From a candidate division WOR-3 bacterium (lineage in GTDB: Bacteria > Hydrothermota > Hydrothermia > B15-G9 > WFZT01): a stretch of 64,000 nt of DNA. The notes under the pieces are model-generated. The model was not told the origin of the DNA. It was given only the letters and a program-made list of their open reading frames with translations, and did not search any database. Position numbers and translations under genes: made by a program. This document shows positions 25,057 to 53,436 of the stretch, one piece after another; position 1 is the stretch's first letter, and each line of letters starts with the position of its first letter. The stretch lies in NCBI GenBank assembly GCA_027053075.1, contig JALUEE010000078.1:32001-96000 (forward strand). The letters run 5' to 3'.

Positions 25057-25059
25057 GCC

Positions 25060-25718: not shown

Positions 25719-27083
25719 TCAGCTATGTTTTTCCTTTATTCCAAGTTTTTCCATCCTGTATCTAAGTACCCTTTCTGAGATCCCAAGTTCCTTCGCAGCT
25801 CTTGTCTTCACCCAGTTATTCTTCTTTAGTGCCTCGAGGATTAGACTTTTTTCAATAAGCTCGAGTCTCTCTGGCAAGGATAAATTTTTATTGCTTTCAA
25901 CCTGAAATTCGCTCGATAGAAGATGAACAGGCAAGTCATCAGTTGTGATAAGGTCACCTTGGGCCATCACAACGGCCCTTTCAACGATATTTTCCAGTTC
26001 TCTTACATTGCCAAGATAATCGTATCTTATTAATGCCTCATAAGCCTCTCTTGTAAAACCGTGGATTTTCTTTCCCTCTTTTTGACTGAATTTTTTGAGA
26101 AAGTGAGCGAGGAGATACGGAATATCCTCTCTCCGCTCCCTCAGAGGTTTGATGTGAATATGGATGACATTCAGTCTGTAGTAGAGGTCTTCTCTAAAAT
26201 TTCCCTTCCTGACTTCTTCTTCGAGATTCTTATTTGTAGCTGCAATGACTCTGATATCCACTTTGACAGGTTTGGACGAACCAACCGGGAAAAATTCACC
26301 TTCTTGCAAAGCCCTCAGTAGTTTGGGCTGAAGATTTAGAGGGAGTTCACCAATTTCATCGAGGAAGATAGTGCCACCATCTGCCATCTGAAAATACCCC
26401 TTTCTGTCTTTAACTGCATCAGTGAATGCTCCTTTTACATGTCCAAAGAGTTCAGATTCGATCAAAGTCTCCGGAATGGCTGCAACATTCACTGGTATGA
26501 AAGGTTTGTCTTTTCGAGGGGAATAACGGTGGATAAATCTCGCTATAAGCTCTTTCCCGGTCCCTGTCTCTCCTGTAATTAATACAGAGGCACGGGATTT
26601 TGCAACTTTGAGAGCAGTGGCAAGAACCCTCTTCATCTCGTATGATTCAGCTACGATACCCTCCACATCAGGATAGAAAAGTTCTTTTTCTTCTTTGAGT
26701 AGCTCGATTTCTTTCACGAGATTTAGATGTTTTATTGCACGGGAAATGACAATGAGCAATTCATCAAGATTTATCGGTTTTACCAGATAGTGGAATGCTC
26801 CAGACTTCATTGCTTCGATAACGAGATCGACATCAGAGTAAGCAGTGGTCATTATAACCGGGATTTGTGGATTAATCTCCCTGATTTTCTTTAACAAATC
26901 GATACCCGACGTGTCTGGCAATTTGATATCGAGAAGGATAGCATCAAAAATTCTGGACTCGAATTTTTTTAACGCTTCTCCACCAGACTCCGCTCCTTCG
27001 GTTTCGTAACCTTTACTTTCGAGAAATTCCTGGAGAATCTCTCTTTGATTTTTTTCGTCCTCTACTATCAATATTGTTGACAT
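25719..27083 (-). CDS. Sigma-54-dependent response regulator (NtrC/ZraR/AtoC family)
   Basis: Receiver domain; GETGTGKE; ESELFGHVKGAFTDA; FLDEIGE; C-terminal Fis-type HTH. Confidence 0.95.
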   Translation of the reverse strand: MSTILIVEDEKNQREILQEFLESKGYETEGAESGGEALKKFESRIFDAILLDIKLPDTSGIDLLKKIREINPQIPVIMTTAYSDVDLVIEAMKSGAFHYLVKPINLDELLIVISRAIKHLNLVKEIELLKEEKELFYPDVEGIVAESYEMKRVLATALKVAKSRASVLITGETGTGKELIARFIHRYSPRKDKPFIPVNVAAIPETLIESELFGHVKGAFTDAVKDRKGYFQMADGGTIFLDEIGELPLNLQPKLLRALQEGEFFPVGSSKPVKVDIRVIAATNKNLEEEVRKGNFREDLYYRLNVIHIHIKPLRERREDIPYLLAHFLKKFSQKEGKKIHGFTREAYEALIRYDYLGNVRELENIVERAVVMAQGDLITTDDLPVHLLSSEFQVESNKNLSLPERLELIEKSLILEALKKNNWVKTRAAKELGISERVLRYRMEKLGIKEKHS

Positions 27084-27161
27084 CTCAACACCCCTTTGGG
27101 CATTATGAATATAAAAGATGGCAGAAGTTTTACAAGTATCTTCATAAACTATGAATCAAAC

Positions 27162-28052
27162 TTAAAAGATTTTCTTCACAAAACTCAGGGTCTCATATTT
27201 TTTTGCCCCCATACGCCGTTTAAATTCCTCCACTCCGGGCAATCCCAGGCTCGAGCCCAGGTTGTAAATGTGGATATCCAGCTTTTCTACAACAGTTTTA
27301 TGCAGGAGATTGTTGGGCCTCAGGTCTAAAAACTCCTTTTTTGCCACTCCATAGTGGTAAAAGGCATATTTCTTCCCCAATACCACGAAGATATGCGCTA
27401 CAGGCTGATCCCGGTAAACAGCCGAAAAAAGCCGGGCAACTCCACTTTTTATCTGCTCTTCAAAAAATACCCTCTTACCTTCCACCCGCTTATCAAGCCA
27501 ACCCTCCCGGGAAAATAACTCTTCAAGAAATTCATTCAAGTTACTATTTATCTTCACTCTCACACCTTCCCGCTCAGCCTTTCTTGCCCCGCGTAAGAAA
27601 GATTCTGTGAAAGCGTCCCCCTCTTTTAAATTCAGGATATGCGTGAATCCCCTAAATTCTTTCATCCCCGAGAACACCACCGGGGCTATCTGATTAAAGG
27701 GCTCCAGATTAACCACAAAACGCACAAGCCCTTTCGAAATTCTACTTATAAACTCCCTGATACACTCAAAATCATGCTCACCCTCCACTAAAACCGGGCC
27801 TCCGTAAGTTCCAAGCGGCCCGCTGTAGATTGCCCGGAGGAGGTAGGTTTTTGATAGAAGAAACGGGAAAAGATACGTAGAATCACGGCATCTTATTTCA
27901 TAGGCACCGTGCTCGTAATTCTTTCTCAAACTTTTATAGATTTTAAGCCATTGAGGTGAGTAAAAAGGTGGGTAAACCTCGAGCCTGTTCAGAAGTTCAA
28001 CCCACCTTTCCTCACCTATACGCTCATAATTCAATTGTTTATGCTCATACAT
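27162..28052 (-). CDS. GNAT / FemAB-like acyltransferase domain protein
   Basis: GTYGGP; RGARKAEREGV; RPNNLL; YNLG...GVEEFKRRMGA. Confidence 0.7.
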   Translation of the reverse strand: MYEHKQLNYERIGEERWVELLNRLEVYPPFYSPQWLKIYKSLRKNYEHGAYEIRCRDSTYLFPFLLSKTYLLRAIYSGPLGTYGGPVLVEGEHDFECIREFISRISKGLVRFVVNLEPFNQIAPVVFSGMKEFRGFTHILNLKEGDAFTESFLRGARKAEREGVRVKINSNLNEFLEELFSREGWLDKRVEGKRVFFEEQIKSGVARLFSAVYRDQPVAHIFVVLGKKYAFYHYGVAKKEFLDLRPNNLLHKTVVEKLDIHIYNLGSSLGLPGVEEFKRRMGAKKYETLSFVKKIF

Positions 28053-28123
28053 TAATCAGAATGACACTCCAAACCACTCGCCCGCACAAAGTGCGTAAGG
28101 GAAGGAAAAGGTATTGGCTTTAA

Positions 28124-28304
28124 CGTGTTCGAAAATTCTGGGATTTTTCTCCTTTTCTCTTCACTTTTCCCATTCCACCCCATCCCTCCCTTCCCAAAGG
28201 GAAGGGAGGGTGAAAAAATTTGAATTTCTGGATTTTTTGTAGAGACACCTATCCACTGCGCATTTCGTAAGTGAAGATAAAGTGTAGTGACATTTTTGAA
28301 CACG
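28124..28304. mobile_element. MITE-like element (about 180 bp) with 13-bp terminal inverted repeats and internal hairpin
   Basis: CGTGTTCGAAAAT (28124-28136) vs ATTTTTGAACACG (28292-28304), 12/13 inverted; internal CCCTCCCTTCCC-AAA-GGGAAGGGAGGG. Confidence 0.6.
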
Positions 28305-28341
28305 CCTGGAAATCCTTTGAGTGTATTCACAAACATTTCCA

Positions 28342-29487
28342 TTACTTATTTCTTAAAAAGGCACGGGCGATGGTTAGCCTGTGGGCCTCGGATGTCCCTT
28401 CATAAATTTCTGTAATCTTGGCATCTCTGTAATGTCTTTCCACATCAAAGTCCTCGGTATATCCATAACCACCGTGAACCTGAATGGCTTCACGAGTTAC
28501 CTTCATTGCTACATCTGATGCAAATAGCTTTGCATAAGCAGAGGCGACAACATAATTCTCGCCTCTGTCCTTTAGAAATGCAGCCTTTAGATAGAGCAGC
28601 CTCGCAGCCTCAATAAGCATTGCCATATCCGCAATTTTCCACTGAATAGCCTGGAATTCGGCTATAGGTTTTCCAAACTGCTTTCTTTCCTTGGCATAGG
28701 CTACTGATTCTTCAAAGGCTGCCCTCGCAATCCCTGTGGCCTGTGCAGCAATCCCGATTCTTCCACCATCGTAGGCATCAAGGGCTATATAAAAACCTTT
28801 ACCACGCTCACCAAGCATATTTTCATCTGGAACCCTCATATCCTCAAAAATGAGCTCGGCAGTGGATGAAGCCCTGATTCCAAGCTTATGCTCTATCTTT
28901 CCAATAGAAAAGCCAGGGGTATCCCTTTCCACAATAAATGCCGAAAGTCCCTTGTGCCCGAGCTCCGGATCAGTTTTGGCAAAAATCAGATAAATACCTG
29001 CCTCTCGACCATTTGTAATGAAAATCTTCCGACCATTTATCACCCATTCGTTGCCATCCTTTACAGCACGGGTTTTGATGCCCGCAATGTCTGTCCCTGC
29101 CTCTGGCTCGGTCATTCCGTGGGCTCCGATGGCCTTCCCTGAGGCAAGAAGTGGGAGATACTTTTTCTTCTGTTCCTCTGTGCCGTATTTCATGATGGGA
29201 TCAACAACGAGGGAAGTGTGAGCAGACATAATTACACCTGTTCCAGCGCATGCCCTTGAGATTTCCTCAACCATCAAGGCATAGCTCACAACGTCCATTC
29301 CAGCACCACCATATACTTCGGGGACATAGACCCCAAACATACCGAGTTTTGCCATCTTTTTCACGATTTCAGCGGGGAATTTTGCCTCTCTGTCCAGCTC
29401 ACGGGCCACGGGCTTTATTTCCTTTTCTGCAAATTCCCGTGCCATATCCCTTGCCATTTTTTGTTCTTCAGTTAGCTCAAAATTCAT
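28342..29487 (-). CDS. Acyl-CoA dehydrogenase (butyryl-CoA dehydrogenase-like)
   Basis: MTEPEAGTD, NGRKIFITNG, KLGIRASST, GGRIGIAAQA, RKQFGKPI, HGGYGY, IYEGTSE. Confidence 0.94.
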   Translation of the reverse strand: MNFELTEEQKMARDMAREFAEKEIKPVARELDREAKFPAEIVKKMAKLGMFGVYVPEVYGGAGMDVVSYALMVEEISRACAGTGVIMSAHTSLVVDPIMKYGTEEQKKKYLPLLASGKAIGAHGMTEPEAGTDIAGIKTRAVKDGNEWVINGRKIFITNGREAGIYLIFAKTDPELGHKGLSAFIVERDTPGFSIGKIEHKLGIRASSTAELIFEDMRVPDENMLGERGKGFYIALDAYDGGRIGIAAQATGIARAAFEESVAYAKERKQFGKPIAEFQAIQWKIADMAMLIEAARLLYLKAAFLKDRGENYVVASAYAKLFASDVAMKVTREAIQVHGGYGYTEDFDVERHYRDAKITEIYEGTSEAHRLTIARAFLRNK

Positions 29488-29490
29488 AAC

Positions 29491-30108
29491 TCACCTCCTA
29501 AAATTCGTCTTTTCCGGTGCATCAAAAAGCAATCTATTTAAAAAATAATGCCCAAATCTACTCCCTCTCCTCACATCATAAATGACAAAAACTGTCCTTC
29601 TGAAGATAAGGAATAAAGAAACAAAAAGCAAAGCACGAAAATATTGCGGAGCAAAAAATGGGGCAATAAATGGCATGGAGAGGATGGCAAAAAAATTACT
29701 CAAACCCGCCTCCCTTAAAGCCAATCCGGCAATGGAAATTGCGACAAAAATACCAAAAATTACAGGGCTTATAAAAAGTAGCACTCCCAGTGTTGTGGCT
29801 ATACCTCGTCCTCCCTTAAATCCAATAAAAATCGAATAGCAATGTCCGACAATGGGACTGAGAAGTGCTATGTCCTGAATGATACCGGGTGTAGTCAACT
29901 TTAATACAAGAACTGCAGCCACCAATCCTTTTGCAAAATCAAGTAATCCGGCGACAATTCCTGTGACTTTACCTGCATTCCTAATGGCATTTGAGCCCCC
30001 AACGTTGCCCGTCCCAACTTTTCTAATATCTATCCCCCTGGTAACCCGGGGCAGGATGAAGGAGAACGGAATACTACCGATCAAATAACCTGCAATAATA
30101 GCCAGCAC
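29491..30108 (-). CDS. plsY: Glycerol-3-phosphate acyltransferase PlsY
   Basis: GYLIGSIPF, DIRKVGTGNVGGSN, GHCYSIF.GFKGGRGIAT. Confidence 0.9.
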   Translation of the reverse strand: MLAIIAGYLIGSIPFSFILPRVTRGIDIRKVGTGNVGGSNAIRNAGKVTGIVAGLLDFAKGLVAAVLVLKLTTPGIIQDIALLSPIVGHCYSIFIGFKGGRGIATTLGVLLFISPVIFGIFVAISIAGLALREAGLSNFFAILSMPFIAPFFAPQYFRALLFVSLFLIFRRTVFVIYDVRRGSRFGHYFLNRLLFDAPEKTNFRR

Positions 30109-30162
30109 GCATGAAGTATAACACTAGAAGCCCAAAATTTTCAAAGTTTTGGAGATTTTTCA

Positions 30163-30195
30163 GGCGGGCCCACGCACGAAGTGCGTGGGCCCGCC
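30163..30195. repeat. Triloop-hairpin repeat between divergent genes
   Basis: GGCGGGCCCACGCAC-GAA-GTGCGTGGGCCCGCC. Confidence 0.85.
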
Positions 30196-30342
30196 GAAGC
30201 AATTCCAATAACCTTAAAAAAAAGACATACTGGATGGGACCAGGGCTTCTGGCAAATTGAAAGAGCAATAAATATGGGGTCATTAATCTTCCACGAAGAT
30301 TTTTTGTGGTCAACTCAAGGCAAATGCATTAAAATGATTGAT

Positions 30343-30795
30343 ATGAGAAAATTTCTAATTGGTGGCATAGTAATTCTGCTTCTTACTTCCTGCACGGCAG
30401 TGAGACAGGTCGTGGCTATTAAAGACCTGAAGATTAAGTTTCAAAACGTGGAGCTGGCACGCATAACCTTAGAAGGGGTGGACCTGAACCTCAACTTTAA
30501 AGCCTACAATCCAAATAGAGTGAACGCAGTACTCTCTGGATTTGCCGTTGATATATTTGCCAACAATATGAAAGTAGGAAAAGCGACCCTCAATAAAACC
30601 CTGAAAGTCCCTGCCGGTGGTAACGCAACCTTCACCATTCCCCTTCATCTGAGCTGGAGGGAGCTTTCTAATTCTCTCTCAAATGCAATAAGGAAAAAAT
30701 CCGTTACCTTTCGCGCCACAGGTTATGCTTTGATAAATACCCCACTTGGCAAACTCCGTTTTAAAGTCGCTGATTACACAAGAGAGATCAGGTAG
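30343..30795 (+). CDS. LEA type 2 / WHy domain lipoprotein
   Basis: Lipobox LTSC; YNPN motif; KVPAGG.ATFTIP. Confidence 0.75.
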   Translation: MRKFLIGGIVILLLTSCTAVRQVVAIKDLKIKFQNVELARITLEGVDLNLNFKAYNPNRVNAVLSGFAVDIFANNMKVGKATLNKTLKVPAGGNATFTIPLHLSWRELSNSLSNAIRKKSVTFRATGYALINTPLGKLRFKVADYTREIR

Positions 30796-30797
30796 GC

Positions 30798-32603
30798 TCA
30801 ATCTCCGTGCAGGTGGTAGTAAATCTTTTGGGCAAGTTTGGGGCCAATACCCTCCACCCTCTGGATTTCCTCAACTGAAGCAGACATCAGTCTCGATAGA
30901 CTGCCAAAATAGGAAATCAGTGCCTGCTTGCGCTTTTCACCTATGTCTGGAATTGTATCCAGAAAAGAAACAAACCCCTCTTTTGTCCTCAAATCCCTGT
31001 GGAAGGTTATGGCAAATCTGTGGGCCTCGTTCCTCAACCGTTGGATAAGCTTAAGTGCTTCAGAGCGTCTTGGAAGCATTAGAACCTTCCCATCCTGGGT
31101 GTAAAGCTCATCAAATCTCTTTGCTATTGCAAGAAAATAAACATCCTGTACACCAAGTTCCCTTGCCGCAGCAAGAGCCTGGTTGAGCTGCCCCACTCCC
31201 CCATCAATGACAAAAATATCTGGCAATCTCTTGCCCTCCTTTGTGAGTCTGCGAAGTCTCCTCTTTACCACCTCGTGAATCATACTAAAATCATCAATTC
31301 CCTGAACAGTCTTAATCCTGTACTTCCTGTAATCAGACTTTTTGGGATACCCCTTTTCAAAAACAACTATACTGCCTACCGGGTTGTTACCAAAGGTGTG
31401 TGAAATATCCACAGCCTCGATTCTCTCAGGCACACGATCAAGCTTTAAAAGGTCCTTCAATTCAAAAAGTGAGGGATGAATTGCCCTGTCCTCTATTTTT
31501 AGCTTTTGGATCTCAATCTCAAGCTCCTTTTGCGCGTTTTCCATGGCCAGCTTGAGAAGGGAATTCTCATCTGAAACAGGCTTCCTGATCTTAATTTTCT
31601 TCTCGGTCTTTTTCTCAAGATAGGCCCTCAAGTAATCAACACTTGGGGGCAATTCCGGGACAATGATCAAATTTGTCCACAAAGTGGCAGTTGAATAGTA
31701 CTGCCAGAGGAATTTTTCAAACGCTTCTATTTCAGAGATTCCCGGTTCTGTATCAACAAAGAACGTCTCCTTATAGACGAGCTTGCCGGTTTTGACATTC
31801 AAAACCACAAAAACCCCAAAATTGCGGGAGAGTGCGTATCCCCAGACCTCAAGGTCTTTGCCATTGGGTGAAACAACACTCTGAGGAGATAAAAGCTCCC
31901 TCAATGCAAGAAGATTATCTCGAATTTTAGCCGCGCGCTCAAACTCAAGATTCTCCGCGGCTTCCTTCATCTCCTCCTCGAGTATCTTCTCAACCCTTGT
32001 GGTTCGACCTGATAGGAGTTCGATTATTCCATTAACGAGCTTCATATACTCTTCTCTGGGCACATCCACCACACACGGACCAATGCATTTTCCGATATGA
32101 TAGTCAATGCAGGCAGGGAATCTCTTCCCTGGAGCAAGTTTATAGGTGCAGGTTCTAACAGGGAAAAGATTTCTCACCATCCTGATGGTTTTTCTAAGGG
32201 CTTTTGCAGACGTGTAGGGACCAAAGTAAATGGAATCTCGATCGCTCAGGTCCCTCGTTGCAAAAATTCCCGGATAGTAGTCTTTAATGGTGATCTTGAG
32301 ATAAGGATACTTTTTATCGTCCTTTAGACGAATGTTGTAGTACGGCTTGTACTGCTTGATAAGATTTGCCTCCAATAGAAGGGCCTCTGACTCTGAACCT
32401 GTGAGGATAAGCTGCAGGTCCCGTATTTTTGAGACCATCACCCTGAGTCTTGGATTTTCCTGTGGCTGGAGATAACTCCTCAAGCGATTCTTCAGATTTT
32501 TTGCCTTGCCCACGTAGAGTACGTGTCCATTTTTATCCTTAAAGATGTAAACACCGGGCTTTTCCGGAACCGTCTTTATCCTCTGAAGCAGGAACTCATT
32601 CAT
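30798..32603 (-). CDS. uvrC: Excinuclease ABC subunit C (start refined to MNEFLL)
   Basis: GIY-YIG PGVYIFKD..VLYVGKAKNL; FERAAKIRD; DISH; IDGGVGQ; RNEAHRFA; HhH GIGPKLA. Confidence 0.97.
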   Translation of the reverse strand: MNEFLLQRIKTVPEKPGVYIFKDKNGHVLYVGKAKNLKNRLRSYLQPQENPRLRVMVSKIRDLQLILTGSESEALLLEANLIKQYKPYYNIRLKDDKKYPYLKITIKDYYPGIFATRDLSDRDSIYFGPYTSAKALRKTIRMVRNLFPVRTCTYKLAPGKRFPACIDYHIGKCIGPCVVDVPREEYMKLVNGIIELLSGRTTRVEKILEEEMKEAAENLEFERAAKIRDNLLALRELLSPQSVVSPNGKDLEVWGYALSRNFGVFVVLNVKTGKLVYKETFFVDTEPGISEIEAFEKFLWQYYSTATLWTNLIIVPELPPSVDYLRAYLEKKTEKKIKIRKPVSDENSLLKLAMENAQKELEIEIQKLKIEDRAIHPSLFELKDLLKLDRVPERIEAVDISHTFGNNPVGSIVVFEKGYPKKSDYRKYRIKTVQGIDDFSMIHEVVKRRLRRLTKEGKRLPDIFVIDGGVGQLNQALAAARELGVQDVYFLAIAKRFDELYTQDGKVLMLPRRSEALKLIQRLRNEAHRFAITFHRDLRTKEGFVSFLDTIPDIGEKRKQALISYFGSLSRLMSASVEEIQRVEGIGPKLAQKIYYHLHGD

Positions 32604-32742
32604 GGGATAAAAAATACACTTAAACCTATTTCTCCACCACCCACAACAGATACGAGCTAAAATTTTATCAACCATATCTTGACAGATTTTATCAATCAGA
32701 TTACTTATAAAACATAATAAGACTATTAGGAGGTTTTTAGAT

Positions 32743-33435
32743 ATGAGCGTTCTGGAACTTAGAGAATTACAGGCATTGAACACCCTTGTCTTCGAGACCC
32801 TTGGACAGCCAGAGAAGGAGAGAGAATTCAAATTCAAATCTCTCAAGAAATGGGGTCTGGATTTGATTTTGGGTAAAAAGGGAGGGAAAACCACGTATTT
32901 TGTCGCTGAGTATGGGAAAAGGAAGTTGGGTGATATTTATGAAGAAAGCGGTGTTAAATACGAAGTTGACGAGATCCTTTACGAAATGCCCAAAAATAAG
33001 AGGTTATTTGCCCACATTGAAATGGAGGACGGTAGAGCCTACCTTGTTGGTCAGCTCAGAGAAGGAGATGAAAACATCGAAATCCTTAGGTTACCCGCTG
33101 CATCACTACTTCTTGCCTATTTCAAAAAGCACAGGTTGCACCACTTGATCGAGGCAATGAGAAATGTTGGAACAGCTACGGAGTTGGTTAAGCAAAGAGG
33201 TCAGGAGGGAAAGCCATATCCATTCAGCAAATTGCCCAATGTAGCAAGAAGATTCCTGAGAGAAGCCAAGAAAATCGAGCGCGAAGCAGGATTTGGAAGA
33301 GTCGCACTTGCATACTACGGTGAAAACAAGGACGGAGATGCAAGATTCAGAGTCTCATGGTTACTCCCAACCATTGCTCTCTTTGAAATCGATATCGCGG
33401 AGAAGGCAGACAAAATCCTTGGAGCTTTCAAGTAA
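32743..33435 (+). CDS. Conserved hypothetical protein, first gene of the prefoldin-containing operon
   Basis: 230-aa ORF with AGGAGG RBS; no function recognised. Confidence 0.75.
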
Positions 33436-33436
33436 G

Positions 33437-34156
33437 ATGGAACTTCTTTTCTGGACACCTGTTTTATACTCACGTAAGGGTTTCCCGAGGGACGAGGAGG
33501 GCAACCCTTTTATTGAAGGAAAAGTCATTGAAGAGTCCATTACTTCGGCCCTCATTTTTTATCACATAAAAAAGGACAAGCTCCTCGAAAATCAGATTAA
33601 AAAGCTCCTCATGGAGCTTTCACCTCGTGATGTGATGCCCATGGTGAAGAAATTGATATTTGAAAAATACAATCTGCACTCTCTTTTGACTTTACCCGAT
33701 AGAATTCCTCTAATTGGTGGTAAAATCTACAAAACTCCCGTTGATGTAATGGACCTTCAGACGTGGGACGAGGTGGATTCATTTATAGGAGAGGTCTTCG
33801 AGGGTATCCTCAGAATACCCGTCGAATCTGAAAAGCTGGAGCTTATCATGGCAGCCGGACATTCATACACAGAAGCCCTGCTCAAAATGGAGATGGAGCT
33901 TTTAGGTGATCATCCACTGGTAGAGACCTTCTACATTCCCATGATCAATGAGGTCAAGAAATGGGAAATCCCACTCAGGACAGGGTGGTGGACCGTGGAA
34001 AAATTTAAGGGAAATCTTCTCTTCTTCTGGAGGGTTAAGGAAATAAGAGAAAGATTCTTGCGCGAATTTAAGCTGGATATAAGGCCACAGAAAATCCTCT
34101 TTCTCCCACGGGAGGGGGTGACGGCAGGATGGGCAGAACTTAAAAAGGAGGTGTAA
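33437..34156 (+). CDS. Hypothetical protein, possible degenerate RAMP (Csm5-like)
   Basis: ATG 1 nt after the previous stop; WTPVLY, PFIEGKVIEESITSALIFY, LRTGW and RP.KI...AGWAEL echo Csm5 motif positions (my recognition, no search run). Confidence 0.45.
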   Translation: MELLFWTPVLYSRKGFPRDEEGNPFIEGKVIEESITSALIFYHIKKDKLLENQIKKLLMELSPRDVMPMVKKLIFEKYNLHSLLTLPDRIPLIGGKIYKTPVDVMDLQTWDEVDSFIGEVFEGILRIPVESEKLELIMAAGHSYTEALLKMEMELLGDHPLVETFYIPMINEVKKWEIPLRTGWWTVEKFKGNLLFFWRVKEIRERFLREFKLDIRPQKILFLPREGVTAGWAELKKEV

Positions 34157-34159
34157 GTC

Positions 34160-34618
34160 ATGGCAGCAAAGAAAGAAGTAAAAAAGGACGACAAAAAAAT
34201 GGCTGAACTCAATAGGGAGCTGAGAAGCTATATAAACCAGATAGAAACACTCAGGGTAAATATTACAAACATTGATGCCCTGATTTCGGAGTACAGGACA
34301 ACCATAACAACCCTTCAGAACCTGAAAGACCTTGGTAAAGGTAAAGAAGTGCTCCTGCCTGTAGGAAGGATTGCACAGGTTAGCGCGAAATTAGAGGCAG
34401 TTGATAAAGTAGTGGTAAGCATTGGAAGCAGCATATCTGTCGAGCTCACATTCGACGAGGCCGTCAAGCAGATCGAGAAGGAAATCTCAGCTCTAATACT
34501 GCTCAGACAGGCACTTGAGAAGACGATGGTAGAGCTCTATGGGAAAGTGGAAGAATTAACCCAGAAGATAAGAGAACATGGAAGAGAAGAAGCAACAGCA
34601 GAAGAAGGAAAGAAATAA
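34160..34618 (+). CDS. pfdA: Prefoldin alpha subunit (archaeal-type)
   Basis: Coiled coil - EVLLPVGRIAQVSAKLEAVDKVVVSIGSSISVELTFDEAVKQI - coiled coil, the two-hairpin alpha-prefoldin pattern. Confidence 0.85.
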   Translation: MAAKKEVKKDDKKMAELNRELRSYINQIETLRVNITNIDALISEYRTTITTLQNLKDLGKGKEVLLPVGRIAQVSAKLEAVDKVVVSIGSSISVELTFDEAVKQIEKEISALILLRQALEKTMVELYGKVEELTQKIREHGREEATAEEGKK

Positions 34619-34745
34619 GTGGATAGAGGAATTTATCTCAAAGTTGCCAGAAGGCAGAAAAATTTACTACCGATTTGGGAATCTTATGGTAGAGGTGTCT
34701 CGCAAGGAGGCACTGGAACTCATTAAAAAGGAGGAAAAGAAATGA
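34578..34745 (+). CDS. Mini prefoldin beta-like protein, 55 aa (not in ORF track)
   Basis: MEEKKQQQKKERNKWIEEFISKLPEGRKIYYRFGNLMVEVSRKEALELIKKEEKK; the LPE..KIY...GNL.VEVS..EALE pattern is the beta-prefoldin hairpin; stop overlaps the next ATG (ATGA). Confidence 0.72.
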   Translation: MEEKKQQQKKERNKWIEEFISKLPEGRKIYYRFGNLMVEVSRKEALELIKKEEKK

Positions 34746-35215
34746 GGAAACCAGGAACTCTCATAGTGATTGTTACAATTGTCGCGCTGGCTCTCGGATG
34801 GGTGATCGGTGGATTTTTCACCAGCACCTCGGTGGCAAAAGCAATTGCATCCATCCCTGCGTCTCCGATAGTTGTGGATGCCAAGTACAAAAGAGACCAG
34901 CATACAATTGAATATTCAATGCTAAATCCAGGAGGGATGCCCCTCACCATTGTGCAGGAATCTTTTGTCTTCACACCCGGTAAAGAGACTAAAGAGAAGA
35001 GCTACATCGTGTCCAACGTACCTGTCAACGTAAAACTGCTTCCCGGGGTGATTACAAAAGTTGAACTTAAGCTCAAACCCGGAACCGAGAAACTCCAGCT
35101 CGGAGACGTGGTACTTGCTACCTTTGCCTACCATCATCCTCTTTCAGAGGACCTTTATACGGTGGTTCACTCGTTTACCATGGAAACAGCAGACACCACT
35201 GGAGGTAAGAAGTAA
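34742..35215 (+). CDS. Membrane-anchored hypothetical protein with probable Ig-like beta domain
   Basis: Basic N-terminus plus TM helix; NPGGMPLTI...LLPG beta-rich domain; AAGGAGG RBS. Confidence 0.65.
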   Translation: MRKPGTLIVIVTIVALALGWVIGGFFTSTSVAKAIASIPASPIVVDAKYKRDQHTIEYSMLNPGGMPLTIVQESFVFTPGKETKEKSYIVSNVPVNVKLLPGVITKVELKLKPGTEKLQLGDVVLATFAYHHPLSEDLYTVVHSFTMETADTTGGKK

Positions 35216-35739
35216 TGAAGGGTGAAAGAGTCCTGTGGTGGATATTCTTTGTAGTATTCGTTGCCTTCCTGATTTTCGGTACTCTCGTGTTCACTGCTAC
35301 GATCATAGCAAATCCTGTTGCAGCAACATTCTTTCTGGGTCTAACAGGTTTCTGGCTCTTTGCCAATAGACTCATATTCGGTTTCGCAGGAATCACAAAC
35401 ACCGCAAATCAGGTTGCAAAAGGAGAGGAAGTTGACAGGAAAAAATTGGCCTCGTACTCAAAGGAACCTGAAGAAAGGACAAGGGAGCTCAGTCTGGTTT
35501 CGCTTCTGATCCTCTGGAGAAATGCTCTTGAACCTTACAGGTACGCTTACTACTTCGCATTCTTTATAGTGTTCATCATCGCAATGCTTTTCCAGCTAAA
35601 TATAATCCAGTCATACGTAGGAGTGATAGCGAAGTCCATCATGTTCGGTGCATCCGTGCCAACGCTGATAGTGTGGGTACTTGACATATTTTCACGTGCT
35701 TACTTAAACGGAGCGATTAAGGCTTCAATGGGGGCCTAA
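35215..35739 (+). CDS. Hypothetical integral membrane protein (about 4 TM)
   Basis: Hydrophobic segments; TAATG-coupled to the previous gene. Confidence 0.7.
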   Translation: MKGERVLWWIFFVVFVAFLIFGTLVFTATIIANPVAATFFLGLTGFWLFANRLIFGFAGITNTANQVAKGEEVDRKKLASYSKEPEERTRELSLVSLLILWRNALEPYRYAYYFAFFIVFIIAMLFQLNIIQSYVGVIAKSIMFGASVPTLIVWVLDIFSRAYLNGAIKASMGA

Positions 35740-35882
35740 TAGACACCCTCCTTCCGTTTAAAGCAGGAGGGGGCGGGATGGTGGGGAGCTTTTTATATAA
35801 ATTTGAGTGGGAAGCGAATTTAAGAGATAGTTAACGTTTATACCGTATAGAGAGCAAATTCGAACTTTTTATAAGATGTTGG

Positions 35883-35909
35883 GAGGGGCTGCCCGAAGGG
35901 CAGCCCCTC
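35883..35909. terminator. Hairpin between convergent genes (triloop family)
   Basis: GAGGGGCTGCCC-GAA-GGGCAGCCCCTC. Confidence 0.65.
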
Positions 35910-35915
35910 ATCTCA

Positions 35916-38660
35916 TCATTCCTTCACCTCTTCCTTTATAACCTCAATTGCCTTCAAAAGCTGGAGGTCTTCATCTGGCCTGTTGGGGTCATTTTCCACA
36001 TAAACATCAGGCTTAACCCCAAGACCCTCTAAGTTGGTTCCATCCGGCAAATACCAGCCAACATAAGGCACGTTGAGACTCGAACCGTCGGGCAATTTAA
36101 CGTGGTCGGTTCCTATCACCCCACCACCTGTGGGCACACCCACAAGCTTTCCGATTCCGAGATACTTCACAGCAGCCGGGAAAATCTCCGCATCCGAGAA
36201 CGAGTACTGGTTAATGAGCACCACAAGGGGCTTGCCCCATCTGAGCCTGGGCTGAACCTGTATCTTTCCACCTCTCCTTCTGAATTTTGCATAGGCCTTT
36301 TTCGTAAGGATATCAAGAAGGGCCTCGTGAATGCGACCACCAGGGTTGTAACGAATATCAAGGATTAACCCCTCTTTCTTCTGCCTCAAAAATCTCATTA
36401 TTGCTCGCCTGAATCTTGCAAGCTCATCCTCGTTCATTGCTCTGATATGATGATACGCAACCTTTCCACCTGTCAGGCTATCCACGATATGTGCATTACG
36501 CCTCTCCCACTCTTCCCACACGAAAGTCCTCATGGTGTCAGCAGGTAGAACCTTCATGGAGAGCACACGCTCGTCCACTGTTTTCACCGTTATGCTATCC
36601 CTGTTGAAAGTTTCTTTGTAGAAGTTGAAGTGTGGATTTTTAGTGCTGTGGCCGTTGATTTCAACGATCATATCACCCACTTCTAAACCAGCAGAGTCTG
36701 CAGGTGAACCCTTGAAGACCTTTGCCACCTTCAGCCCGTATTCCGTCAGTTTCCCTCTGAATCCTACAAATCCCTTTATCTTGATTTTGCTCTTAGGTGG
36801 TGAGATTCCCATGTGGGACGCTCTAAGCTCACCGGTCATAAAGAGGATAGCCTTTCTAAGCTCACTGTAAGTTTCGATATAGTCAAGAAGTGGCTCGTAG
36901 TATGCCTTTACCGCTTTCCAATCGACTCCATTCATGGTAGAATCGTAAAATCTCGTCTTCAACTCCTCCCAGGCCATATCGAATATGCGACGGAAATCCT
37001 TTTTACGATCAACCATCTCTTCCGCCGTGAATTCCACAGTTTCAGGCAGAATAAGTTCTTTAGGAGCCTTGATTTTCTGGATTTTCCCGTGGTTTGTGAA
37101 AATAATCAGTCCATCTGCCCAGTTGGGCCCACGCCCAGGGGTGAGCTGCACGTGGTGCTTTCCAGCGGCATCCATGACATAGATATTTACACCAGACTGT
37201 GATGAGACCTCATAAGCCACCATATTGCCGTCAGGAGAAACTGTTGGAATCTGTTTATAACCCGGCCCTGACGTGAGTTTTTGTGGCTTGCCTTTGGCCT
37301 TACCGTCCTCAAAAGCAACTCGGTAAATTTCTCCGTTACCACTCCTCTGAGAATCAAAATAAATCCATTTTCCATCTGGAGAAAATGTGGCATCATCGTC
37401 TGCCTTTTCGTGGTGGGTAATCTGGAAAACCTTCCTATCACTCAGTCTGATAACAAAAATGTCTTTGTTCCCCTTTCTCATTGATGTAAACACAATGTAG
37501 TTCCCATCAGGTGACCAACTTTCGAAGAAATCATCGTGTTTATCCTTTGTAATCTGCTCGGGCTGGCCACCATCCACAGGAATTACAAAAATGTCATTAT
37601 TGCCATTTCTATTCGAAAAGTAGGCAATTTTCTTGCCATCAGGAGAAAAGCGGGGCCACTTATTTGCGTAAGGGTCATCGGTTATTTTCCTTGCCTCACC
37701 TCCATTCGCAGGCACAATCCAGATATCTCCTCTCATAGAAAATGCGATGTATCTGCCATCAGGAGATAGAGCAGGTGATTCGCCCGAATCTGTAAATTTC
37801 CTCAAAAATTTCTCCGGAAGCTTGTCATCAGTTCTGATAATAATATTCAACGGGCTGACCTCACCTGTAGCAAGATCAAGTTTGTAGAGCATCAATTTGT
37901 GCTCAAATATTGCGAATCTGCCGTCTTTAGATACGGTTAGGTGAAGCGCGTCTCCCCTTTTTAGGTGGGTGAGCCTCACGGGTTTGCCTTCAAATTTATA
38001 AACCTGCAGGCCACTATCCCTTTCCGAAATAAAATAGAGGTTGCCCTTGCCATCAACTGCAGGGTCCCTGTCGGTGCCATCAAAGTGTGTGATTCTTTCA
38101 AACTTACCATCCTTGAGCTTGTAAATTTCTCCATTTGCCGAGCCCCTATATCCCTTTCTGAAGTACGAAACTCCATTTCTCACAAAATATATGGAGCTGT
38201 CAGGAGAATATACGGCACTGTGAGATTCAAAGAAGGTTACCCGCTTTGCCGGACCTCCATCTTTGTGAATTTTATAGACACTATAGACAATTCCGTCTCG
38301 GTAGGAATAAAAAAGTATGGTGTCACCCTTCCAGTCCGATGGGATATCGGTTGAAGGGTTGTAAGTGAGTCTTTTTGGCATACCACCTTCTGAGGGGACA
38401 ATCCAGATGTCGTAATTCCCCGCGCGTCTTGAGCCAAAGGCTATGAACTTTCCATCAGGTGACCAGACAGGCTTTGTATCCGTAGAATCGTGAAGTGTTA
38501 TGCGCTTTAATGTGCTGTCTTTCAGCCCATAGACCCAGATATCTCCCCGATAGGTAAATGCAACTTTATTGCCATCCGGAGAAATAGCCGGGTAAAAAAG
38601 TCCAGGGGTTGGCTTCCCCTGCGTAACGGATAGAAAAATAAAGAGAAGATACTTTATCAT
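35916..38660 (-). CDS. Tricorn-like S41 peptidase with PD40 repeats and PDZ domain (start refined to MIKYLL)
   Basis: Many WSPDG/FSPDG repeats; LDIRYNPGG; SFSDAEIF; GVPTGGGVIG; EGLGVKPD. Confidence 0.9.
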   Translation of the reverse strand: MIKYLLFIFLSVTQGKPTPGLFYPAISPDGNKVAFTYRGDIWVYGLKDSTLKRITLHDSTDTKPVWSPDGKFIAFGSRRAGNYDIWIVPSEGGMPKRLTYNPSTDIPSDWKGDTILFYSYRDGIVYSVYKIHKDGGPAKRVTFFESHSAVYSPDSSIYFVRNGVSYFRKGYRGSANGEIYKLKDGKFERITHFDGTDRDPAVDGKGNLYFISERDSGLQVYKFEGKPVRLTHLKRGDALHLTVSKDGRFAIFEHKLMLYKLDLATGEVSPLNIIIRTDDKLPEKFLRKFTDSGESPALSPDGRYIAFSMRGDIWIVPANGGEARKITDDPYANKWPRFSPDGKKIAYFSNRNGNNDIFVIPVDGGQPEQITKDKHDDFFESWSPDGNYIVFTSMRKGNKDIFVIRLSDRKVFQITHHEKADDDATFSPDGKWIYFDSQRSGNGEIYRVAFEDGKAKGKPQKLTSGPGYKQIPTVSPDGNMVAYEVSSQSGVNIYVMDAAGKHHVQLTPGRGPNWADGLIIFTNHGKIQKIKAPKELILPETVEFTAEEMVDRKKDFRRIFDMAWEELKTRFYDSTMNGVDWKAVKAYYEPLLDYIETYSELRKAILFMTGELRASHMGISPPKSKIKIKGFVGFRGKLTEYGLKVAKVFKGSPADSAGLEVGDMIVEINGHSTKNPHFNFYKETFNRDSITVKTVDERVLSMKVLPADTMRTFVWEEWERRNAHIVDSLTGGKVAYHHIRAMNEDELARFRRAIMRFLRQKKEGLILDIRYNPGGRIHEALLDILTKKAYAKFRRRGGKIQVQPRLRWGKPLVVLINQYSFSDAEIFPAAVKYLGIGKLVGVPTGGGVIGTDHVKLPDGSSLNVPYVGWYLPDGTNLEGLGVKPDVYVENDPNRPDEDLQLLKAIEVIKEEVKE

Positions 38661-38708
38661 ATCACACAGCCTCCTTTCAAAAATTTTGGTAAGTTTAAGG
38701 TGCTCACA

Positions 38709-39872
38709 ATGGATTTTCAAAAAATGTTGATAGCAAAGAGAAACGACCAGATTACCTCCTTCATCGTGATGGAGATTCTGGAGAAAGCGGTGCGTCTCGA
38801 GCGTGAGGGGAAGAGTATCATTCATCTTGAAATAGGTGAACCTGACTTTGATACCCCGGAGCCCATCCGAAAGGCTGGTATCCGGGCCATAAAAGAGAGT
38901 AAAACCCACTACACGCCGAGCCTTGGAATCCCGCAGCTCCGAGAGGCAATAGCTGAATTTTACCACGATTACTACGGTGTAGATGTGTCTCCGGAGCGAG
39001 TGGTGGTAACAAACGGCACATCAGGGGCATTTTTACTCGTTATGGCTGCAATCCTTGACATAGGAGACGAGGTCATCTTCACTGATCCGGGATACCCCTG
39101 CTATCCAAATTTTGCACGAAGCTTTGATGCAAATCCCGTGTTTGTCCCGGTTTACGAAGAAGAAAACTTCGAAGTGGATATCAAGCGCCTAAAAGAGGCT
39201 TTGAGTCCCCGCACAAAGGCAATTCTTATCGCCTCACCAGCTAATCCCACGGGAACACTTACAAGCCCCGAAAAACTGAAAGAGGCCCTTGAGCTTGTAC
39301 CGTTTTTCATTTCAGATGAAATTTATCACGGCCTCGTATATGAAGGGGAGGAACACACTGTGCTGGAATTTTCAGATAGGGCAATTGTGATAAATGGATT
39401 CTCAAAGCTCTTTGCCATGACCGGATGGAGGCTCGGCTGGGTCATCGTGCCAGAGGATTTATTGAAAACCATCCATAAACTTGCTCAGAACCTGTTTATC
39501 TGTCCAAACTCAATTTCGCAGTATGCTGCTCTGGCAGCCTTTAAAGAAAGCTGGGATTATGTTCTTGAAATGAAAGAAAAATACAACGAAAGACGACTTG
39601 AAATGATAAAGGGGCTCCGCGAGATTGGGTTTGAGATAAAGTCCACCCCGGCAGGTGCCTTTTACGTTTTTGCCAACATTTCAAAGTTTTCAGATGACTC
39701 TTTTAAATTTGCCCATGAGCTCCTGGACAATGCAGGAGTTGCGGCAACTCCGGGAGTTGACTTCGGGAAAAACAGGACCAATCATTATATCCGATTCTCT
39801 TATGCCAACTCCCTTGAGAATATCAGGGAAGCGATCGAAAGAATAAAAACTTATCTGAAGGAGAGAGCATGA
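38709..39872 (+). CDS. Class I/II PLP-dependent aminotransferase (AspC-like)
   Basis: EIGEPDFDTP, SPANPTG, SDEIYHGL, NGFSKLFAMTGWRLG. Confidence 0.92.
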   Translation: MDFQKMLIAKRNDQITSFIVMEILEKAVRLEREGKSIIHLEIGEPDFDTPEPIRKAGIRAIKESKTHYTPSLGIPQLREAIAEFYHDYYGVDVSPERVVVTNGTSGAFLLVMAAILDIGDEVIFTDPGYPCYPNFARSFDANPVFVPVYEEENFEVDIKRLKEALSPRTKAILIASPANPTGTLTSPEKLKEALELVPFFISDEIYHGLVYEGEEHTVLEFSDRAIVINGFSKLFAMTGWRLGWVIVPEDLLKTIHKLAQNLFICPNSISQYAALAAFKESWDYVLEMKEKYNERRLEMIKGLREIGFEIKSTPAGAFYVFANISKFSDDSFKFAHELLDNAGVAATPGVDFGKNRTNHYIRFSYANSLENIREAIERIKTYLKERA

Positions 39873-40303
39873 GGTTACTAACAAGATCAAGATATGCGGT
39901 TAGAGCAATACTTGACCTTGCAATGAATCAGGATGATAAACCTGTGTTTATCAGGCAAATTGCTGAAAGAGAGGGGCTCTCCGAGCGGTATCTTGAGAAT
40001 CTTTTTCTCCAGCTTAAGAGAGCAGGGATTCTTGAAAGCTCGAAGGGACGCGGAGGTGGATTCAAACTGGCAAAGCCACCGGAAGAGATCACAATTCTCG
40101 AGATTGTCGAGGTGGTTGAAGGCAGGATTAGTCTTGTGGCTTGTGTGGAGGACGAATCCGTATGCGAAAATGTTGACATCTGTGCTCCACACGACCTTTG
40201 GAAAGAACTTGCTGAAAATATCAGGGATTTTTTGAGAAATTACACCCTTAAAGACCTTATCGAGTTACAGAAAGAAAAACTCCAGCGAGTTTTGGAGAAG
40301 TAA
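39869..40303 (+). CDS. Rrf2-family transcriptional regulator with three Cys
   Basis: RSRYAVRA, YLENLF..LKRAG...S.KGRGGG; C-terminal C-x6-C-x5-C. Confidence 0.9.
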   Translation: MRLLTRSRYAVRAILDLAMNQDDKPVFIRQIAEREGLSERYLENLFLQLKRAGILESSKGRGGGFKLAKPPEEITILEIVEVVEGRISLVACVEDESVCENVDICAPHDLWKELAENIRDFLRNYTLKDLIELQKEKLQRVLEK

Positions 40304-40519
40304 TACCAACACCTATTAAACACCGGGCTTATAAATTTTAAGCTGATTACAGTGGTGAGCAAATAAGTTTAGCCGATGGATGATGTAGAAAATTATCGGT
40401 CCCATTCTCATCTAACTCCACTTTGACGAAGGAGAAGGAATTCTTAGCTTACTGGTAAAGATTCCGTCCCTGCTGACTCGAGCAAGAATAGTGTTACCCT
40501 GGGGAAGGGATGTTCGGGG

Positions 40520-41002
40520 CAGGGTTTATCAATGCTAAACGCTATAAATTTTCCCGATTTGAACTATGCACACTTAAAGATAGCGCAAGAAAGGAAAATT
40601 TCGGTTTGTATAGACTTCCCCTCCTTCCCTTCGGGAAGGAGGGGGTTAGGGGAGAATGGGGAAAGCTAAATTTAGTAGGTTTGAGAGCCATGCGCACAAA
40701 ATTTCTGAGAATACAAGGACTGGACTTTTTGAAGTATTATAAAATTTCAGATGTCCCCATTCATCTAACTTCTCCCCGCAATTTCAAGACTTTTCCCTCC
40801 CCCGCTTGCGAAGCAAGCGGGGGAGGGGTAGGGAGGGGGCATTCCGCTTAAATTCTATAAAAATTTAAGATGTGGCCCCTCACCTCAATCCTCTCCCCGC
40901 AAAAAAATCTATGCGGGGAGAGGAAGTTTTCTGACGCGGGCAGGTGAATGACTTTCAATCAATATGGGTAAAAATTAGTGCAACCAGCATTGATAAGCCT
41001 TG
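40520..41002. mobile_element. MITE-like element (about 480 bp) with 17-bp terminal inverted repeats enclosing three hairpins
   Basis: CAGGGTTTATCAATGCT (40520-40536) vs reverse complement of 40986-41002, CAAGGCTTATCAATGCT (15/17); flanks GGGG and GGGT; hairpins near 40618, 40795 and 40890. Confidence 0.55.
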
Positions 41003-41088
41003 GGGTTGGGATGGAATGGGTGATTTTGGATTCATCTACACTATAGTGGAAATATTTGGATGATTCTTAATCGCTATTGTTATAAATT

Positions 41089-42063
41089 CTAATCCCCGAG
41101 GTGCCTATCCTTTTCGATGTAATCTTTTATATACTCGGAGATTGCATTTTCAAATGTGTAAAATTTCCCGGGATAGCCAAGACGACGAAGCTTTGAGATA
41201 TTTGCCTGTGTGAAATACTGATACCTCGACTTTAGCCATTCGGGCATATCCACAAATTCGATTTGAGGCTCCATGTTAAGGGCCCGGAAAACTGCATTTG
41301 CAAGATCATGCCAGCTGTGTGCACGCCCGGTACCTACATTGTAGATTCCATGGGCATTTTCAGATTTGTATAAAAACATAACTATCTCGACCACATCCTT
41401 GATGTAAATGAAATCTCTCTTCTGCTCCCCGTCTTTAAACTCTGGATTGTAGGATTTGAAAAGTCTGATTTTTCCTGTGTTTTTCACCTCTTCGTAAGCT
41501 TTTAACACTTTGCTCCGCATCTCTCCTTTGTGGTACTCATTGGGACCATATACGTTGAAGAACTTCAGTCCAATCACGTTTCTCAAAAGATTATTTTCGT
41601 ATAACCAGAGGTCAAAAAGGTGTTTTGAGAATGCATAGGGATTAAGGGGTCTTAATGAATGCAAAAGCACCTCATTGTCATCAAAGCCCAATTTTCCATC
41701 TCCATAGGTTGCTGCACTTGAAGCATAGATGAATTTGATCCCTCTTTTTATTGCGTATTGAGCCAGAACCTTTGAATAACGAAAGTTGTTTTCAATGAGG
41801 AATCCCGCGTCCTTTTCAAGCGTGTCACTCCTTGCCCCCATGTGAAAGATGGTATCGAGCCCCGGAATATCCTTATCCTGCTCGACTAATTTCAAGAATT
41901 CATCCTTCTCGATGTAATCCCGGAAGTAAAAGGGAGAAAGATTCTTCCATTTATCAGAGGTGGAGAGATGGTCAACGATAATGATGTCGCGTACATCTTC
42001 CTGGTTTAATCGCCACACAATGGCACTTCCTATAAAACCCGCACCACCAGTTACAACAATCAT
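41089..42063 (-). CDS. hldD: ADP-L-glycero-D-manno-heptose 6-epimerase
   Basis: VTGGAGFIGS, FHMGA, YASSAATYG, PLNPYAFSK, FFNVYGPNEYHKG.M, YQYFTQA. Confidence 0.95.
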   Translation of the reverse strand: MIVVTGGAGFIGSAIVWRLNQEDVRDIIIVDHLSTSDKWKNLSPFYFRDYIEKDEFLKLVEQDKDIPGLDTIFHMGARSDTLEKDAGFLIENNFRYSKVLAQYAIKRGIKFIYASSAATYGDGKLGFDDNEVLLHSLRPLNPYAFSKHLFDLWLYENNLLRNVIGLKFFNVYGPNEYHKGEMRSKVLKAYEEVKNTGKIRLFKSYNPEFKDGEQKRDFIYIKDVVEIVMFLYKSENAHGIYNVGTGRAHSWHDLANAVFRALNMEPQIEFVDMPEWLKSRYQYFTQANISKLRRLGYPGKFYTFENAISEYIKDYIEKDRHLGD

Positions 42064-42107
42064 GCATAAACTTTACATTAAGGATTGAATTATTTCAACG
42101 AGAAATT

Positions 42108-42252
42108 GAGCGCGTTCGAAAAATTTCAACTTAATTTGAAATTTTAAGAGGAATTCACTCACATATCTCCTTCCCCCACGCACGAAGTGTGTGGGGGGAA
42201 GGAGAGGATATTATCAGCTCTATTTACAAGTGTGAGCAAACTTCTGGAACGC
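42108..42252. repeat. Triloop-hairpin repeat with degenerate terminal inverted repeats
   Basis: GAGCGCGTTCGAAAAATTT left end; TCTCCTTCCCCCACGCAC-GAA-GTGTGTGGGGGGAAGGAGA; AAACTTCTGGAACGC right end. Confidence 0.65.
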
Positions 42253-53433: not shown

Positions 53434-53436
53434 CAG

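Follow-up and report, generated by a model that had tools for sequence, protein, structure and literature searches.

Work on filament-forming γ-prefoldin treats it as an archaeal filament without counterpart and as a scaffold for nanomaterials. Here, we describe a bacterial locus that encodes a predicted orthologue of this protein together with a very small β-class prefoldin, a protein of the UPF0128 family, a Csm5-type RAMP and two membrane or exported proteins. The locus is found in a 64,000-nucleotide (nt) stretch of DNA from a candidate division WOR-3 bacterium (contig JALUEE010000078.1, positions 32,001 to 96,000; the whole stretch is referred to as the window), and its six genes are best explained as one operon, i.e., as the full-size version of a modular cassette.

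The closest solved relative of the prefoldin found in the window is the γ-prefoldin of Methanocaldococcus (M.) jannaschii (also named “Prefoldin subunit alpha 2”; Protein Data Bank (PDB) entry 6VY1), which forms filaments. According to the accessible parts of PMC11117396, these filaments form both in vitro and in cells, their cellular role is unclear and the γ-prefoldin transcript increases 26-fold on heat shock; in the same parts, the protein is treated as unique to M. jannaschii and is studied alone, i.e., without a small partner. A γ-prefoldin mutant called TERM, in which one β-sheet is dead, caps the filaments and thereby sets their length (PMC4895442, accessible portion). The canonical archaeal prefoldin (1FXK, 2ZDI), in contrast, is an α2β4 complex with the shape of a jellyfish and has a cognate chaperonin, to which it passes substrates. 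Of the other relevant systems, Csm5 is a RAMP subunit of the type III-A CRISPR-Cas complex (TIGR01899; 6MUR chain F, 6LDN), and UPF0128 (PF03673, TIGR00703) is itself an uncharacterized family, for which no functional literature was found.

The six genes are co-directional and densely packed at 32743–35739 on the + strand (open reading frame (ORF) list of the window). They are referred to as p1–p6 in the order of transcription, and the following assignments are predictions from the evidence presented below:

32743–33435, + strand: p1, UPF0128/TIGR00703 protein, 230 amino acids (aa)
33437–34156, + strand: p2, shortened Csm5-type RAMP, 239 aa
34160–34618, + strand: p3, alpha-class prefoldin of the γ-prefoldin (filament) type, 152 aa
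34578–34745, + strand: p4, mini β-prefoldin, 55 aa
34742–35215, + strand: p5, N-terminal hydrophobic anchor or signal peptide followed by a β-rich domain, 157 aa
35215–35739, + strand: p6, integral membrane protein, 174 aa

The junctions from p1 to p6 measure +1, +3, −41, −4 and −1 nt, the start of p4 being located within p3 (overlap 41 nt), and a Shine-Dalgarno-like GGAG(G) is found ahead of five of the six starts, the motif ahead of p4 being weak. The p2 frame extends upstream as a long TTG-initiated ORF (33293–34156), and alignment of 39 homologues identifies the ATG at 33437 as the conserved start. An earlier note on this DNA, made from the sequence alone, had described six coupled genes between uvrC and a tricorn-like gene, encoding an unknown protein, a RAMP-like protein, prefoldin alpha, a mini prefoldin beta and two membrane proteins. 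The short junctions and both flanks agree with this description, and the protein assignments became more specific on analysis: the unknown protein belongs to UPF0128 (PF03673), the RAMP is Csm5-like (Foldseek, VIA and family profile), the product of 34160–34618 passes the prefoldin alpha models with γ-prefoldin as its subtype, the 55-aa gene encodes a β-prefoldin core, and hydropathy and alignment mark p5 and p6 as hydrophobic proteins, membrane-bound or exported.

The recognizable parts of the operon are thus all of known kinds, i.e., γ-prefoldin, a β-prefoldin core, a Csm5 RAMP and UPF0128. Relative to the searchable literature, neither the truncated β partner nor the Csm5 derivative without CRISPR nor the complete operon has been described, as the earlier note had stated for the function of the module; no publication describing any of the three was found, and closed γ-prefoldin papers could mention homologues. 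Our preferred reading, to which we assign an even chance, is that the operon is a horizontally spread stress-protection cassette of thermophiles from hydrothermal vents.

The prefoldin pair p3 and p4

The p3 protein passes the prefoldin alpha models TIGR00293 (95 bits, cut-off 53.9) and PF02996 (80 bits, cut-off 23.2); like M. jannaschii γ-prefoldin, it is an alpha-class protein with two hairpins. Its best match among PDB sequences is 6vy1_A (E 1.8e-32), whereas the canonical alpha subunits are matched weakly (E 1.2e-8 and 5.5e-8). The identity to M. jannaschii γ-prefoldin is ~48% in a hand-counted alignment. Comparison with two Methanocaldococcus-type metagenome-assembled genomes (MAGs) gives 46–48% identity to their γ orthologues and 29–31% to their canonical alpha subunits; the γ orthologue of one of these MAGs matches 6vy1_A at E 4.8e-72 and is nearly identical to it. 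Judged from these comparisons, p3 is an orthologue of the filament-forming γ-prefoldin and not a canonical alpha subunit, and γ-prefoldin has bacterial orthologues in several phyla. The M. jannaschii protein forms filaments, while those of p3 are predicted from sequence; p3 also differs in being bacterial, in sharing its operon with genes for a UPF0128 protein, a RAMP and membrane proteins, and in coming from a genome that lacks a group II chaperonin. In the literature on prefoldin in Aquificota, only an unrelated review among the 15 best-ranked of 258 papers mentions prefoldin.

The small p4 protein scores at the edge of the general β-prefoldin profile (PF01920: 27.5 bits, cut-off 27.6, profile positions 22–72 of 106) and well below the cut-off of TIGR02338 (22.4 bits vs 73). 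At the family level, all 19 of 19 members match PF01920 at E ≤ 0.01 (best 8.8e-10), and the family profile matches solved β-prefoldins (3aei_A at 1.4e-7, 2zdi_A at 2.1e-6). The β-class architecture, i.e., two long coiled-coil helices flanking one hairpin, is not found in p4, which consists of a single β-hairpin core, alignable with the hairpin of β subunits, and lacks most of both helices; its 55 aa compare to 99–117 aa for canonical β subunits, and the p4 family spans 49–79 aa. The profile matches and the alignment identify p4 as a truncated β-prefoldin derivative and not a standard β subunit. Several of the longer p4 variants end in GG/K-rich tails.

The two prefoldin genes are tightly linked. 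At 28 of the 29 loci that carry p3 (see below) it is followed by p4, and the exception (L037) ends at a contig edge 914 bp past p1. A p4 homologue is also encoded directly after the archaeal γ-prefoldin gene, as a 57-aa protein in one MAG and likewise in the second, so that p3 and the archaeal gene share a β-like neighbor of 55–57 aa; the archaeal side of this comparison is from the two Methanocaldococcus-type MAGs and not from M. jannaschii itself.

It could be argued that p3 and p4 form a classical α2β4 jellyfish co-chaperone that passes substrates to a chaperonin, as in archaea, because p3 passes alpha models, p4 matches a β model and the genes are always adjacent. We consider this improbable. 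The p3 protein is much closer to γ-prefoldin than to canonical alpha subunits, p4 lacks most of the substrate-holding coiled coil, and no full-length β subunit is found in the window's genome. Furthermore, the genome (a MAG, 95% complete) has a single PF00118 match, which is GroEL by NCBIfam (852 bits), and no thermosome/CCT-type chaperonin, the thermosome models reaching at most 103 bits against cut-offs of at least 400. Because the only Cpn60 is GroEL, substrates cannot be passed on to a group II chaperonin in this genome; the classical co-chaperone role, which the earlier note gave as established background on prefoldin, cannot apply. The module operates without a group II chaperonin, since the genome that harbors it has none.

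In the reading that we prefer, p3 would polymerize via its two β-hairpins into chaperone filaments that hold non-native proteins, as extrapolated from the 6VY1 filament and published γ-prefoldin work. The p4 protein, having one hairpin and almost no coiled coil, would add to the end of a filament but leave the next subunit no site to bind, and would thereby cap the p3 filament or set its length. By analogy this is the most likely role of p4, because the linkage of p3 and p4 is invariable in bacteria and also found beside the archaeal γ-prefoldin gene. The logic is that of TERM (as presented in the accessible portion of PMC4895442), where one functional and one dead β-sheet interface stop growth; TERM is a full-length, laboratory-made γ-prefoldin mutant, whereas p4 is natural, far smaller and of the β class, and would cap by virtue of its single hairpin. 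A conserved but overlooked mini-β partner, present beside the archaeal gene as well, would thus provide a natural mechanism to control filament length, which is directly testable.

UPF0128, the Csm5-type RAMP and the membrane pair

The p1 protein is a full-length, high-scoring member of UPF0128 (PF03673: E 1.2e-97, 326 bits, cut-off 21; TIGR00703: 330 bits, cut-off 155), and its AlphaFold2 (AF2) model is confident (pLDDT 91.3). Searches of structures were made with the whole model and not with the N-terminal domain separately: no PDB match was obtained at E ≤ 1e-3 with Foldseek, the best match of VIA over about 48,000 chains was a ferredoxin-like fold covering residues 141–230 only (Z 5.1), and BFVD gave no match. 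The p1 profile found nothing under E 0.069 among PDB sequences, and the ESM Atlas yielded no usable match. By the Foldseek, VIA and BFVD searches the full-length model has no clear structural relative; a new fold is not claimed.

UPF0128 is a tiny family, with 40 matches at E ≤ 1e-3 among 1.84 billion cluster representatives, many of which are fragments. No polar residue is invariant across 18 members reaching down to 24% identity; p1 is probably not an enzyme, and it is read as a binding or scaffold protein because the distant members share no such residue. The model has neither a signal peptide nor a membrane segment. The sequence is about 60% identical between bacteria and archaea; on viral contigs, none of 19 pattern matches was confirmed, and p1 was not found on plasmids. 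A predicted complex of p1 and p2 scored 0.00 with controls not run, a result that counts neither for nor against the pairing. In view of the confident model without a recognizable relative and the strong conservation across domains of life, the partners described here provide a first functional handle on this family.

Searched on its own, the p2 protein of the window matches no Pfam or NCBIfam family at default thresholds, including TIGR01899 and PF03787. Its AF2 model (pLDDT 93.5) is most similar to Csm5: the best Foldseek matches are Csm5 chains (E 3.5e-5, prob 1.0), and VIA aligns 224 of the 239 residues to 6mur_F, i.e., nearly all of p2, with a root-mean-square deviation of 3.0 Å (Z 16.2). 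All of the top 29 VIA rows are Csm5 chains, other RAMPs reaching Z ≤ 7.6. The sequence homology to Csm5 is visible only in profile-to-sequence comparison. Of 24 family members, two match PF03787, both weakly (best E 0.0013), and the family profile gives seven weak matches in other genomes of the window's phylum, of which 4/4 tested pass TIGR01899 (Csm5). By fold and by family profile, p2 is a shortened Csm5 homologue (239 aa, vs 284–382 aa for the Csm5 proteins found here), and it is probably RNA-binding.

Unlike Csm5, p2 is not accompanied by a CRISPR-Cas system; it travels with UPF0128. Family scans found no cas genes (cas10, csm2–4, cas6) among its neighbors, no CRISPR array-like repeats were found within 25000–45000, and the PF03787 RAMP clusters of the genome are found on contigs C47 and C99, not on that of the window (C78). 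Nothing relevant on Csm5-like or solo RAMPs was found in the literature. A Csm5-type RAMP that has departed from CRISPR-Cas and travels with another family would be a rare example of Cas exaptation.

The homology to Csm5 also raises the question of whether the locus is a CRISPR-derived or anti-phage defense island, in which the RAMP would act as a sensor of nucleic acid and the products of the other genes as effectors. A patchy distribution across phyla, a gene tree that is incongruent with taxonomy and the presence of membrane proteins, as in many abortive-infection effectors, would fit such a role. Nevertheless, we regard it as a poor prospect, because PADLOC-DB 2.0 has no family that matches p1, p2, p4, p5 or p6, and the matches of p3 are weak coiled-coil ones to LmuB (E 4e-4 or worse). 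Pfam and NCBIfam scans of the six proteins found no nuclease, cyclase, CARF, Cas10 or other effector domain; the region is free of CRISPR arrays and Rfam matches, and the type III RAMP clusters are on other contigs. The absence of p1 from the viral contigs and plasmids searched also speaks against defense, as does its conservation between bacteria and archaea, unusual for a defense gene, and the recurrent neighbors of p1 are of stress type rather than defense type.

The two last genes encode a membrane or exported pair. The p5 protein has one hydrophobic segment (~residues 7–25) followed by a β-rich domain of ~110 aa, and is on this basis assigned as exported or membrane-anchored. Residues H54, D122, H143, Y49, Y130 and Y139 are invariant and H132 is nearly so. 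No match to p5 was found in Pfam, PDB sequences or PADLOC; the ESM Atlas leads DUF2393, DUF1616 and PmoB-like all scored under 0.9 and were not used. The C-termini of the p5 proteins carry a conserved Gly-Gly-Lys tail, preceded by a variable Lys-rich linker. In p6, hydropathy peaks at residues 10–28, 24–42, 113–131 and 135–159 define hydrophobic segments that flank a charged loop (~residues 60–95). No family match was found for p6, and its profile gave nothing useful against PDB sequences. The p5 gene is kept at 19 loci, always alongside p6, which is kept at 20 and is found directly upstream of p1 at L035 and G134 (L100).

Distribution of the cassette and its proposed role

A scan of one genome per species yielded 80 UPF0128 loci, at which p1 is 58–90% identical to that of the window. 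The bacterial loci are from Aquificota, Thermodesulfobacteriota, Deferribacterota, Thermotogota, Bacteroidota/Chlorobiota, Calditrichota, Methylothermaceae and Campylobacterota, and the archaeal loci from Thermoproteota, Archaeoglobaceae and Methanocaldococcus. Neighbors were counted using hidden Markov models (HMMs) of clustered neighbors, built on the same loci that were later counted. At 42 of the 80 loci p2 adjoins p1 (40 of the 75 with enough downstream DNA), p3 is present at 29/80, p5 and p6 occur together at 19/20, and all six genes are found at 14 of the 60 loci where the downstream sequence reaches 3.2 kb or more. The genes flanking the operon in the window are not conserved across UPF0128 loci. 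Because the partner genes recur beside p1 and the flanking genes do not, the arrangement is far beyond chance.

That the cluster is a chance assembly of unrelated small genes packed in this genome is therefore extremely improbable. Four of the six genes are of unknown function and 18 of the 80 p1 loci have none of p2–p6, as would be expected from such packing, but the same order is found at 14/60 loci of different phyla without conserved flanks, and the pairing of p3 with p4 (28/29) and of p5 with p6 (19/20) contradicts chance.

The sub-modules p1–p2, p3–p4, p5–p6 and p6–p1 recombine around p1 in at least 10 phyla of vent thermophiles. The p1–p2 pair is found alone in Campylobacterota and Bacteroidota, p1–p5–p6 at L050 and L058, p1–p2–p5–p6 at L019 and p6–p1 at L035 and G134, and in Hydrogenothermaceae a YfdX gene is inserted after p4. 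Other recurrent neighbors of p1 are YfdX (18 loci), DUF308 (9), DUF1931 (8), c21 (an archaeal 83-aa protein; 6), a BON-domain protein (5), UPF0114 (5) and DUF505 (3). DUF308, which we take to be the HdeD family, and YfdX flank p1 at Methylothermaceae and Thermodesulfobacteriota loci, and the BON-domain gene does so in Campylobacterota.

The six-gene order is seen only in bacteria, and the archaeal loci pair p1 with c21 and DUF505. The description of the operon as archaeal-type in the earlier note was therefore too strong: the p3–p4 pair is indeed found in archaea, as a separate unit, but the complete order is not. In contrast, its suggestions that the genes would co-occur elsewhere and that the module is shared horizontally among thermophiles are supported by the counts above and by a quick p1 tree. 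In this tree, the 20-row clade of the window (SH-aLRT 96) contains Aquificota, Thermodesulfobacteriota and Deferribacterota side by side, and the Aquificota sequences are spread over three separate clades, a pattern that fits repeated horizontal transfer. The cassette also clearly marks the exchange of genes between vent thermophiles.

Several observations at individual loci are added here. At the archaeal loci L083, L087, L081, L093 and L077, p1 is followed by the conserved 83-aa protein, which belongs to no family (cluster c21). In the archaeon L070, 6554–10360 holds p1, DUF505 (569 aa), c21, a γ-like prefoldin and a mini-β protein, with a small winged-helix-like ORF upstream. At the Desulfurobacteriaceae loci L015, L016, L018, L021, L027 and L028, the gene after p6 encodes a conserved protein of 206 aa that has two CxxC pairs (cluster c15; no Pfam family found), and next come der/engA, an FMN reductase and DUF72.

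Coupling at the genome level was examined in a sample of 201 genomes of the window's phylum; these are kin, i.e., the counts are not independent. The p1 gene is found in 18 of them. A strong p2 match is obtained for 15 genomes, and all but one of these (14) have p1 as well, seven with p1 and p2 on separate contigs. Prefoldin alpha is above the cut-off in six of the 201 genomes, all with p1. An Aquifex MAG that has p1 carries p2 on another contig, and p2 was not found in the complete genome of Methanocaldococcus sp. 16A or in three MAGs, all of which have p1.

These data bear on an alternative in which the core of the system handles envelope or metal stress (p5 and p6; YfdX, DUF308 and BON elsewhere), with p1 as a cytoplasmic partner and the prefoldin pair and the RAMP as co-regulated passengers. 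The free recombination of the sub-modules, the flanking of p1 by DUF308, YfdX and BON, or by p6 alone (L035, G134), and the invariant His, Asp and Tyr residues of p5, which would suit a metal or ligand site, are all compatible with such a core. However, p2 tracks p1 across genomes even when unlinked, which argues for more than co-regulation, p5 matches no known metal-binding family, and p1 has no signal peptide or membrane segment in the model. This alternative is therefore possible but rather unlikely.

In the stress-protection cassette that we favor, p1, with or without the RAMP, would be a hub, serving for binding or as a scaffold rather than as an enzyme and pairing with p2 and with the membrane protein p6; p5 and p6 would locate part of the system to the envelope. 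A tie of p1 to envelope-stress genes is something that we infer from its neighbors YfdX, DUF308 and BON. A more elaborate version, which is speculative and clearly unlikely, is that UPF0128 and the Csm5-derived RAMP form a new unit that holds RNA or is a ribonucleoprotein, works independently of CRISPR and derives by exaptation from a type III effector. It would dock on length-controlled γ-prefoldin filaments, which p6 would tether to the membrane. The whole, a thermophile structure not known before, would protect or organize RNA and nascent proteins under thermal stress, the cassette being traded between vent bacteria and archaea.

A number of points weigh against the stress-protection cassette. 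The link to stress rests on annotated names of neighbors (YfdX, DUF308, BON), the functions of which are poorly defined, and the filaments of p3, the capping by p4, the RNA binding by p2 and the contacts of p1 are features that we infer. The neighborhood HMMs were applied to the same loci that had served to build them, and most loci are vent MAGs from a few sampling campaigns, i.e., they are not independent. The p1 gene is found without p2 in whole genomes and alone at 18/80 loci; therefore, the parts are separable and need not form one machine. Finally, the 41-nt overlap of p3 and p4 is not universal, the two ORFs being non-overlapping in Desulfurobacteriaceae.

Promoter region, flanking genes and other features of the window

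The operon is preceded by the divergent uvrC, the true start of which is at 32603 (TIGR00194, 550 bits), leaving an intergenic region of 139 bp between uvrC and p1. The signals around the operon are as follows:

32678–32684, + strand: CTTGACA, candidate −35 element in the uvrC/p1 intergenic region, with a putative promoter role
32728–32733, + strand: AGGAGG ribosome-binding site, 9 nt ahead of the p1 ATG
35746–35771, + strand: hairpin CCCTCC...GGAGGG followed by a T-run, candidate operon terminator directly after the p6 stop

CTTGACA is found at a similar distance 5′ of p1 at most of the bacterial loci compared. At the Desulfurobacteriaceae loci L014, L016, L021, L024 and L027, the −10 region of the CTTGACA promoter is overlapped by a palindrome, (A)TTTAG-N5-CTAAA(T), which is perfect or nearly so, is located about 60–40 nt upstream of p1 and is a candidate repressor operator. 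The window instead carries a direct repeat, ATTTTATCAA, at 32662–32671 and 32688–32697 (positions counted by hand). No CIRCE-like element was seen in the p1 upstream sequences by eye, no formal motif search having been made. The hairpin at 35746–35771 is absent from the output of a consensus terminator scan, and is thus weak evidence; a stronger hairpin at 35883–35909 abuts the convergent protease gene. An Rfam scan of 30000–40000 gave no matches.

The convergent downstream neighbor combines TolB-type propeller repeats with an S41 peptidase domain, and because of this combination the label “tricorn-like” is fair. Downstream of this gene in the window, a class I/II aminotransferase gene (38700–39872, + strand) has homologues at seven other UPF0128 loci (cluster c7, eight members including that of the window), which is probably coincidental synteny among relatives. 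Just beyond uvrC, the ORF at 30181–30795 (+ strand) encodes a putative lipoprotein-like protein, in which a repeat-like β pattern resembles LEA14/LEA_2-type domains by eye; its residues from 30331 on gave no NCBIfam match, and the ORF is not conserved with the operon. Further along the window, the G+C content is 0.31–0.39 at 50001–54000, vs mostly 0.42–0.46 up to ~50 kb and 0.38–0.41 beyond, and this segment may be a foreign island.

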